Virus record (IMG/VR): IMGVR_UViG_3300038608_000020
Coordinates: 1 to 38,425 of that record
Length of the DNA: 38,425 nt
Origin: a virus
Lineage: Duplodnaviria; Caudoviricetes
Strand: one strand, 5' to 3'
Part shown: piece by piece, positions 31,507 to 32,137 of the stretch
Layout of the letters: each line of letters begins with the position of its first letter
Numbering within the stretch: position 1 is the stretch's first letter
Program-made: the position numbers and the translations under genes
The notes under the pieces: generated by a model
Database searches by the model: none
Told to the model about the DNA's origin: nothing
What the model saw: the letters and a program-made list of their open reading frames with translations, nothing else

Positions 31507-31902
31507 ATGAATATCGACAACCTGACCTACGGCGAACTGAAACAAATAGCGGCAATGTTTAGCGCGGTGCCAGCTGCCAACACGGCCGTGCAAGCGCCAA
31601 GCCTTGGCGGCATGATCGGCAAGAAGTGCATTGTCCGGACCTATGCAGCTGGCGTCTGGTTTGGCGAAGTCGAACAGAAGTCAGGCAATGAGGTAATCGT
31701 CAAGAATGCGCGCCGTATGTGGCGCTGGCATGCAGCCGAATCGGTAAGTCTGAGCGCTGTGGCTAACCACGGCATCAAGGAAAAGCAAAGCAAGATTGCC
31801 GAATCAGTTGCGAGTGTCTGGCTTGAAGCTATTGAGCTGATTCCGTGCACTGACAAAGCAATCGCCAGCATCGAAGGTGCGCCGAATGTCAAAGCTGAAT
31901 AA
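31507..31902 (+). CDS. DUF6948-like protein (possible Sm-like fold)
   Basis: IGKKCIVRTYAAGVWFG...VKNARRMWRW...SLSAVANHG...AIELIPC; GAGGG RBS. Confidence 0.75.
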   Translation: MNIDNLTYGELKQIAAMFSAVPAANTAVQAPSLGGMIGKKCIVRTYAAGVWFGEVEQKSGNEVIVKNARRMWRWHAAESVSLSAVANHGIKEKQSKIAESVASVWLEAIELIPCTDKAIASIEGAPNVKAE

Positions 31903-32137
31903 ACCAGATATCGACGGCGACGGCTCCGGCTCCGGCTCCGGCTCCGGCTCCGGCTACGGCTCCGGCGACGGCTCCGGCTCCGGCTACGGCGACGGCTCCG
32001 GCGACGGCTCCGGCTCCGGCTACGGCTACGGCTCCGGCGACGGCTCCGGCTCCGGCTCCGGCTCCGGCGACGGCTCCGGCTCCGGCTCCGGCGACGGCTA
32101 CGGCTCCGGCTCCGGCTCCGGCTCCGGCTCCGGCTAA
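31886..32137 (+). CDS. Gly-X (X = S/D/Y) repeat peptide, 83 aa
   Basis: AAGGTG RBS inside the upstream gene; MSKLNKPDI followed by alternating Gly to the stop. Confidence 0.6.
   Translation: MSKLNKPDIDGDGSGSGSGSGSGYGSGDGSGSGYGDGSGDGSGSGYGYGSGDGSGSGSGSGDGSGSGSGDGYGSGSGSGSGSG
31913..32134. repeat. Hexamer tandem array (GGCTCC/GGCGAC/GGCTAC), about 37 units
   Basis: Directly visible. Confidence 0.95.

Follow-up and report, generated by a model that had tools for sequence, protein, structure and literature searches.

Here we describe a two-gene phage module in which a DUF6948 protein, predicted to form an Sm/LSm-like barrel, is encoded next to a chain of Gly-X dipeptides whose chemistry is kept while its order and length change. 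The two genes are linked in both directions, from the barrel across viral and cellular genomes and from the chain across viral loci. Our tentative explanation is that the barrel binds the acidic and aromatic chain as a separately encoded stand-in for single-stranded nucleic acid.

The window, meaning the whole stretch of 38,425 nt that was analysed, is a 97%-complete virus record encoding podovirus-type head and tail genes, a lysis cassette, NinB/NinG, O-like replication and RecT/YqaJ recombination genes. Among the 54 ORFs scanned, none matched an integrase or a repressor of CI length; an excisionase-like gene (29996-30220, minus strand) and a cro-like gene (31160-31369, minus strand) are present, and from its gene content the genome seems to have a lambda-like layout without lysogeny genes. 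No close cultured relative was found by megablast. The two genes of the module, ORF A and ORF B, are the first two beyond a TTGACA site and lead the early recombination operon. The features of the locus are the following:

31160..31369, minus strand: cro-like gene (Pfam P22_Cro, E 3.8e-13), divergent from the cassette and back to back with the promoter-like site
31430..31459, plus strand: sigma-70-like promoter TTGACA-18-AATATT, a consensus match only (10/12; second hexamer 4/6, spacer 18 nt)
31466..31481, plus strand: 6-bp hairpin in the 5' leader, from RNA folding
31496..31499, plus strand: ribosome-binding site GAGG of ORF A, from the sequence (duplex -7.1 kcal/mol)
31507..31902, plus strand: ORF A, DUF6948 protein of 131 aa, by Pfam and a predicted Sm/LSm-like barrel
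31873..31878, plus strand: weak ribosome-binding site GAAGGT of ORF B, inside ORF A (-3.9 kcal/mol versus -7.1 for ORF A)
31886..32137, plus strand: ORF B, Gly-X chain of 83 aa (ATG at 31886, stop at 32135-32137)
31916..32131, plus strand: hexamer array of 24 GGCTCC, 7 GGCGAC and 5 GGCTAC, from the sequence
32154-32175 and 32180-32199, plus strand: two hairpins 3' of ORF B with no U tract, from RNA folding; no terminator called on the plus strand

The hairpin pair 3' of ORF B is a possible 3' protection or processing site. The 208-nt spacer that contains it (32138-32345) folds somewhat more stably than shuffled sequences (z -2.2), and an Rfam scan of 31300-33800 returned no family and one chance-level match (E 0.92). 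The earlier note had called the pair the first early unit, which describes its place in this genome well and does not carry over to the family: across 36 loci its neighbours are varied, recombination, repressor, replication and terminase genes among them, and in Ymer-group phages such as Pappous it forms a self-contained cassette, antisense among the tail genes, with a TTGACG promoter-like site and a hairpin followed by a T run.

ORF A is a full-length member of Pfam DUF6948 (PF22253), an entry that gives no function or partner; residues 38-122 match model positions 1-85 with an E value of 6.6e-30 and 103.5 bits (cut-off 27). Its AlphaFold2 model is confident (pLDDT 88) and predicts a bent five-stranded antiparallel sheet, in which loop L4 holds an inserted helix and a further helix stands at the C terminus. 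In a wide structural search the top match was an Lsm1-7 chain (6ppv_A; Z 8.1, rmsd 2.1 A, 65 aligned). Sm-fold chains took all of the top 28 places, the first unrelated one appearing at Z 5.2; a Z near 8 is a moderate match. These matches included LSm domains of the P-body proteins Edc3 and Tral, as well as the small subunit of NatC, which we take to be Sm-like. The Foldseek matches shown against the PDB were all Sm/LSm-containing entries (best E 1.4e-3, none at or below 0.001). The Sm/LSm-fold structure 3BY7 aligns over barrel residues 38-126, including the C-terminal helix (Z 6.0, rmsd 3.6 A, 72 aligned), but shares only 17% identity with the barrel, and the accessible part of its description mentions no Gly-X partner. 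The claims of the earlier note that the first gene is DUF6948-like and possibly Sm-like are therefore borne out, the second at the level of the predicted fold.

The details of the barrel set it apart from the best-known members of this fold. The Sm/LSm fold is described in PMC3710371 as having a conserved Gly midway along strand beta2; the corresponding residue is G53, in strand 50-59, which is kept in 99% of 142 sequences. The variable loop L4, between beta3 and beta4, holds an insert (74-95) with a helix at 82-88. Canonical RNA-binding Sm/LSm proteins build their uridine pocket with a loop-L3 Asp and an RG motif. With positions mapped by secondary structure and no residue-level superposition, the loop-L3 Asp is not conserved at ORF A residues 58-61 (at most 16% of the 142 sequences), and the Sm RG motif is absent, residues 105-110 reading W-L-E/D-A-I-E in the same set, likewise mapped by secondary structure. 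The residues conserved in the family are R44, G49, G53, R69, R70, W72, W74, L82, G89, K/R96 and E110; R44 is present in 100% of the 142 barrels, R69 in 93%, R70 in 94%, and W74 and K/R96 in 92% each. Judged from the alignment, R44, R69, R70, W72, W74, K/R96 and E110 are an unusual basic and aromatic set, and the core is mildly basic (median net charge +1, positive in 100 of 142). Hfq models gave no match to ORF A in Pfam or NCBIfam scans, PDB sequence searches with two barrel profiles returned nothing meaningful and no Hfq chain at E 10, and an archaeal Hfq-like chain reached a fold-level Z of only 4.6. By its predicted structure, ORF A is an Sm-fold module that is neither Hfq nor a canonical uridine-binding Sm protein. 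The barrel family comprises 1462 proteins at E 0.001 among 50%-identity representatives, and it extends over phages and prophages within bins assigned to Pseudomonadota, Bacillota, Bacteroidota, cyanobacteria, planctomycetes and archaea.

The last 17 nt of ORF A are shared with ORF B, which runs in the +1 frame. In the Gly-X register, ORF B consists of a short basic leader of 10 residues, 36 units (24 Ser, 7 Asp, 5 Tyr) and a closing Gly; in the X-Gly register, of a 9-residue leader and 37 hexamers. Only one codon is used per residue, which would occur by chance with a probability of about 1e-34 at the codon frequencies of 14 long genes from the same genome, and a four-hexamer pattern gave 33 matches, all within ORF B, versus none in 100 shuffles. 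ORF B is thus the overlapping, pure Gly-X reading frame that the earlier note had reported. Its product has a net charge of -7 and no family match in protein-family scans. AlphaFold2 predicted no secondary structure for the chain alone (pLDDT 31), which with a low-complexity alignment of 27 rows is a weak test for a stable repeat fold such as a beta-solenoid or the polyglycine-II bundle raised in the earlier note, and a complex prediction with two barrels (residues 30-131) and the first 60 chain residues (score 0.01, mark 0.32) gave no answer either way. ORF B is very probably translated, and its weak ribosome-binding site suggests translational coupling to ORF A.

The same arrangement recurs in relatives. 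The closest one, with a 90% identical barrel, has the same layout and a 71-aa chain (L001); phage PhiPLPE (EU876853.1; L023) carries a 78-aa Gly-X ORF at 1173-1409 of its locus that is unannotated in the record; and in NK-7 the Gly-X ORF is annotated as a "fibroin heavy chain-like protein". A conserved leader was considered as a general binding motif and rejected, as leaders vary (MSKLNKP, MSYLDKP, ME.., or only one or two residues). Contigs from two DNA runs match both flanks of the repeat at 99% or better and stop at 31905 and at 32144-32149; because they break at the repeat, the exact length and order of the copy in this genome are not independently confirmed. Four RNA runs with small shares contained only short pieces of other organisms' contigs.

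We surveyed the linkage of the two genes from both sides. A Gly-X ORF lies 3' of the barrel gene at 90 of 98 phage loci, which were drawn from two IMG/VR scans (the second represented by its best 80 of 502) and four named phage records; six of the exceptions end at most 52 nt past the barrel stop, and in the other two the barrel is fused in frame to an unrelated gene. The corresponding count for genome loci (the best 80 of 105) is 71 of 80, the exceptions being five contig ends (one with a Gly-X ORF upstream), two broken barrels, one locus with a 21-aa remnant and one, L149, with an intact barrel alone. All 17 misses therefore comprise 11 contig ends, two broken barrels, two fused barrels, one remnant and one intact barrel without a chain. 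The barrel loci are partly redundant and form 73 groups at 70% barrel identity. The Gly-X gene is missing as well from four loci (L065, L067, L140, L164) whose barrel gene is broken or runs into an unrelated one.

In the reverse direction, a Gly-Tyr/Asp/Ser DNA pattern identified 121 viral loci in 6 of the 64 parts of the collection, of which 54 with less than 700 nt upstream were set aside (18 of these still have a barrel). A barrel gene or a divergent sister stands beside 65 of the 67 loci with at least 700 nt upstream: 49 are of the DUF6948 type, 14 belong to the sister group, two are weak matches, and two have neither (L202, L239). The earlier note's proposal of an uncharacterised two-gene module, tied to Gly repeats among homologues, thus holds from either side. 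The sister-group profile was built from 11 of the 14 proteins and two others, and its hits are therefore partly self-matches; profile against profile, it matches the barrel family at 91% (E 1e-6), and PF22253 matched two of five sister proteins scanned (E 1e-8 and 2e-4), so that the group lies partly below the Pfam cut-off. Its members (L184:1712-2038, minus strand; L228:1046-1378, plus strand; L223:1166-1432, plus strand; and others) carry the motifs DRG[FW]V and R.WGT..GLG.L, are mostly missed by Pfam, and pair with Gly-X genes. Rearranged or multiplied forms also occur, with the Gly-X gene lying 5' of the barrel (L123), flanking it on either side (L220) or in tandem (L202, L224/L225). An estimated 1600 or so stored viral stretches contain one specific Gly-X DNA pattern; since short-read contigs break and many homologous loci end at the repeat, the partner gene is likely under-counted in databases.

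Comparison between lineages indicated what is kept in the chain. The earlier note had stressed the lack of synonymous variation, which is correct within ORF B and fails across the family, where each of the four Gly codons is dominant somewhere: GGC in 54 of 71 lineages, GGT in 7, GGG in 7 and GGA in 3, the top codon making up at least 90% within the locus in 60 of the 71. The third base of the X codon is C in 46 lineages and T in 23, and Ser is written TCN in 61 and AGY in 4. Judging from these codons, uniformity within a locus is local homogenisation and not a family constraint. The residues at X are far more restricted: of the 2684 X positions counted in 89 ORFs, 2479 are taken by Ser, Tyr, Asp or Asn and only 15 by Ala, which a single base change would produce from TCC or GAC, and Thr, Pro, Cys and Val are likewise rare, though each is one base step away. 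At least one aromatic and at least one acidic X occur in 71 of 71 lineages, with median shares of 0.31 and 0.25, a tally slightly biased by the choice of the Gly-X frame according to the count of such units. Some chains are nearly neutral, with a net charge of zero or above in 6 of 126. In L019 and L131 the X codons end in G, and Trp, Glu and Ser replace Tyr, Asp and Ser; reading through queuosine-tRNA or specific to Tyr was rejected as an explanation, given that these versions exist. Adjacent X residues are nearly independent (observed/expected 0.8-1.2 among Ser, Tyr and Asp). As codons and order vary and residue classes are kept, it is the chemistry of the chain that is kept and not its sequence.

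Length is not kept either. Among complete chains the number of units runs from 7 to 64 (median 32). The barrel genes of Ymer and Amona are identical and their chains measure 73 and 67 aa, Taid differs by one base in the barrel gene and has a chain of 85 aa, and the order of units differs among them; chains range from 53 to 89 aa in the seven of eight Ymer-group records compared, and the near-identical barrels of L009, L010 and L011 accompany chains of 53, 71 and 134 aa, differences that short-read assembly of repeats could inflate. That chains vary even beside identical barrels agrees with the tunable low-complexity partner proposed in the earlier note, tunable here in its variable-length part. 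Slippage or recombination among hexamers would account for the changes in length and order.

Some chains are joined to other domains. An extension of at least 55 aa follows the chain at 28 of the 121 reverse loci, 24 of which share one domain of about 150 aa, and an N-terminal domain (GAC..GV) precedes it at 9 of the 121. The 150-aa domain carries an H..LTGSC..GR motif and is found at L020:2791-3558 and L144:2285-2956 in addition to the 24 reverse loci; another domain occurs at three loci. Scans of two examples of the fused domains gave no named family. Such fusions fit a role of the chain as a docking tether. On the side of the barrel, two of 271 proteins (P0136, P0174) end in a degenerate Gly-X tail read in the barrel's frame, and their genes may be decayed; when 334 candidates were screened for longer fused forms, there was one match, whose N-terminal part is unrelated and which lacks a Gly-X tail. 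The window contains a second repeat gene (27146-27784, minus strand; family phrog_18326) made of Ala-Ala-Tyr and Ala-Ala-Asp units with the codons GCC, TAC and GAC only; it places a Tyr/Asp pair on a small-residue scaffold, as the Gly-X chain does. A member of phrog_18326 lies directly 3' of the Gly-X ORF in L017, and no link was found between the gene at 27146-27784 and the domains fused with Gly-X chains.

Given the obligate pairing, the coupling, the occasional fusion, and the complementarity of charge and aromatic residues, the simplest account is that the barrel binds the chain, which we consider probable. Whether the chain does so as a mimic of nucleic acid is a more tentative proposal, to which we give somewhat less than even chances. 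ORF A and ORF B would be made early from one promoter, ORF B through translational coupling, and the chain would dock on the putative Arg/Trp patch of the barrel, assuming that these residues share one surface. A dipeptide has six backbone bonds, as does a nucleotide; one dipeptide could therefore stand for each nucleotide unit, with aromatic side chains in place of bases and carboxylates in place of phosphates, and several barrels, or one ring like the 5- to 8-membered assemblies of canonical RNA-binding Sm/LSm proteins, could load along the chain. In about a quarter of cases the chain would tether a folded domain to the barrel. Nucleic-acid binding by the barrel is itself an assumption, its core being mildly basic and without the loop-L3 Asp and the RG motif, and there are counter-cases to the pairing, namely the intact barrel without a chain (L149) and the two Gly-X loci without a nearby barrel (L202, L239). 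The loaded chain could also divert, as a decoy, those host proteins that read single strands, although we think such an anti-host role unlikely. In its fullest form, this idea pictures a ribosome-made random copolymer, (Gly-aromatic/acidic/Ser)n, encoded by phages of many bacterial phyla, as a single-strand mimic reshuffled by its own hexamer DNA and coated by an Sm-like ring, a decoy ribonucleoprotein titrating host defence or RNA decay; this, too, is an outside chance.

The kept chemistry could also serve ends other than mimicry. As a sticker-and-spacer polymer whose aromatics bind the barrel arginines, the chain might form condensates, granules with RNA that shelter or sort phage RNA; the FUS low-complexity domain is a [G/S]Y[G/S]-like example of such a polymer. 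An aromatic share that is never zero, the indifference to order, the absence of a predicted fold and the LSm domains of Edc3 and Tral among the fold matches would all suit this account, but condensates have no need of strict Gly alternation, some chains have only 7-10 units, and the acidic share is kept in all lineages, which leaves it doubtful. Ser, Tyr, Asp and Asn are common acceptor residues, and their predominance at X, together with fast reshuffling and the early, accessory placement expected of a conflict gene, raises the prospect that the effector is the chain itself, an unstructured substrate offered as a decoy to host enzymes or sensors by which these residues are modified or recognised (kinases, ADP-ribosyl or nucleotidyl transferases), with the barrel as a keeper shielding it from proteases; the replacement of Tyr/Asp by Trp/Glu in L019 and L131 speaks against it, since Trp is no such acceptor, and we rate it as rather improbable. 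The barrel might conversely act on a host protein, in the manner of Rof on Rho or by poisoning Hfq rings, with the chain as an inhibitor or co-factor. The pair here occupies the first slot after an early leftward-type promoter, the place that antiterminator N has in lambda, but the position of the cassette is not conserved, and its presence in bins of many phyla, archaeal ones included, makes a single host target unlikely. Rof (YaeO), an Sm-like inhibitor of Rho, is a precedent for a small Sm-like protein that acts through protein binding in a non-RNA role; according to the accessible part of the source, however, it is restricted to Pseudomonadota (PMC11018626), and it is a cellular, single-gene protein to which the barrel showed no match in searches. 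A host-protein target is accordingly quite improbable.

Three further accounts are less probable again. The chain could be a sponge that chelates divalent ions or phosphates and perhaps folds only with them: most X positions are Asp, Asn or Ser, runs of these with Gly echo the calcium-loop pattern Dx[DN]xDG, and the leader junction here reads DIDGDG. This is very unlikely, as it leaves the constant aromatic share and the obligate barrel unexplained, and the order of units is random, whereas calcium loops need fixed spacing. That the repeat acts as DNA or RNA (a barrel site, a tRNA-sensing leader or a neutral microsatellite), its protein being irrelevant, would explain the single codon per residue within a locus, the weak ribosome-binding site of ORF B and its missing annotation in PhiPLPE. 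However, the codon set shifts between lineages while the Gly-X frame, start, stop and residue classes stay, at 28 of 121 loci a folded domain is joined in frame to the chain, and the Ymer-genus cassette is closed by its hairpin and T run with the next gene antisense, so that there is nothing to attenuate; the chances of this account are slim indeed. The earlier note had also allowed for a programmed +1 frameshift whose functional product would be a barrel carrying a Gly-X tail, to which the +1 overlap in this genome and the two natural in-frame fusions lend some colour. As a family feature it does not survive the comparison: the frame offset over 154 distinct partner ORFs (three of them mis-framed rows) is +1 in 84, +2 in 68 and 0 in 2, most partner ORFs have their own start adjoining the barrel stop, and the overlap here contains no slippery run by eye. 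We find this account barely credible.

The proposal of a chain that the barrel binds in place of nucleic acid has its nearest parallel in Hfq, whose acidic, disordered C-terminal tail binds to basic residues of the core as a mimic of nucleic acid, as described in the accessible text of PMC5606850. Both systems combine an Sm core bearing basic residues with an acidic segment that is unstructured (core fold and disorder being predictions here), and the two in-frame barrel/Gly-X fusions share the core-then-tail layout of Hfq. The chain would then be an Hfq-like acidic tail in trans, competing with RNA or DNA for the barrel. In contrast to Hfq, the segment here comes from its own gene, has Gly in strict alternation, is rich in aromatics and differs in length and order from phage to phage, and the barrel lacks a sequence match to Hfq and carries a helix in loop L4. 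Ocr, Gam and the pentapeptide-repeat proteins are folded mimics of duplex DNA, made early, with fixed sequences and acidic surfaces. The Gly-X chain would resemble them as an acidic protein standing in for nucleic acid, but it is predicted to be unstructured, is random in order and is tied to an Sm-like partner. The hexamer array also recalls tandem-repeat contingency loci, in that length and order change faster than by point mutation; unlike these loci, it keeps its frame, so that no on/off switch results, and the array makes up the whole coding region.

Our literature search, which covered few subscription papers, found no paper naming DUF6948, no description of the barrel/Gly-X pairing or of a composition-selected, reshuffling chain, and nothing on single-strand-mimic anti-defence or on phage "fibroin heavy chain-like" proteins; the accessible main text of the Ymer-genus paper does not mention glycine (PMC11445585). 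The Sm fold and the Pfam entry are already known, and the pairing and the composition-selected, reshuffling chain are apparently new. The proposals are directly testable, since cultured phages (the Ymer genus and PhiPLPE) carry the pair as a small cassette and both proteins are simple to produce. It is unusual for a coding gene to keep its chemistry while its order is shuffled from one sister phage to the next. If the chain is indeed a single-strand mimic or a scaffold for an Sm-like ring, Sm biology would gain protein ligands in trans, and phages possibly a new anti-host tool; and if the decoy-ribonucleoprotein reading is true, selection would act on the chain gene through composition only, and the module would represent a new class of counter-defence in phages.
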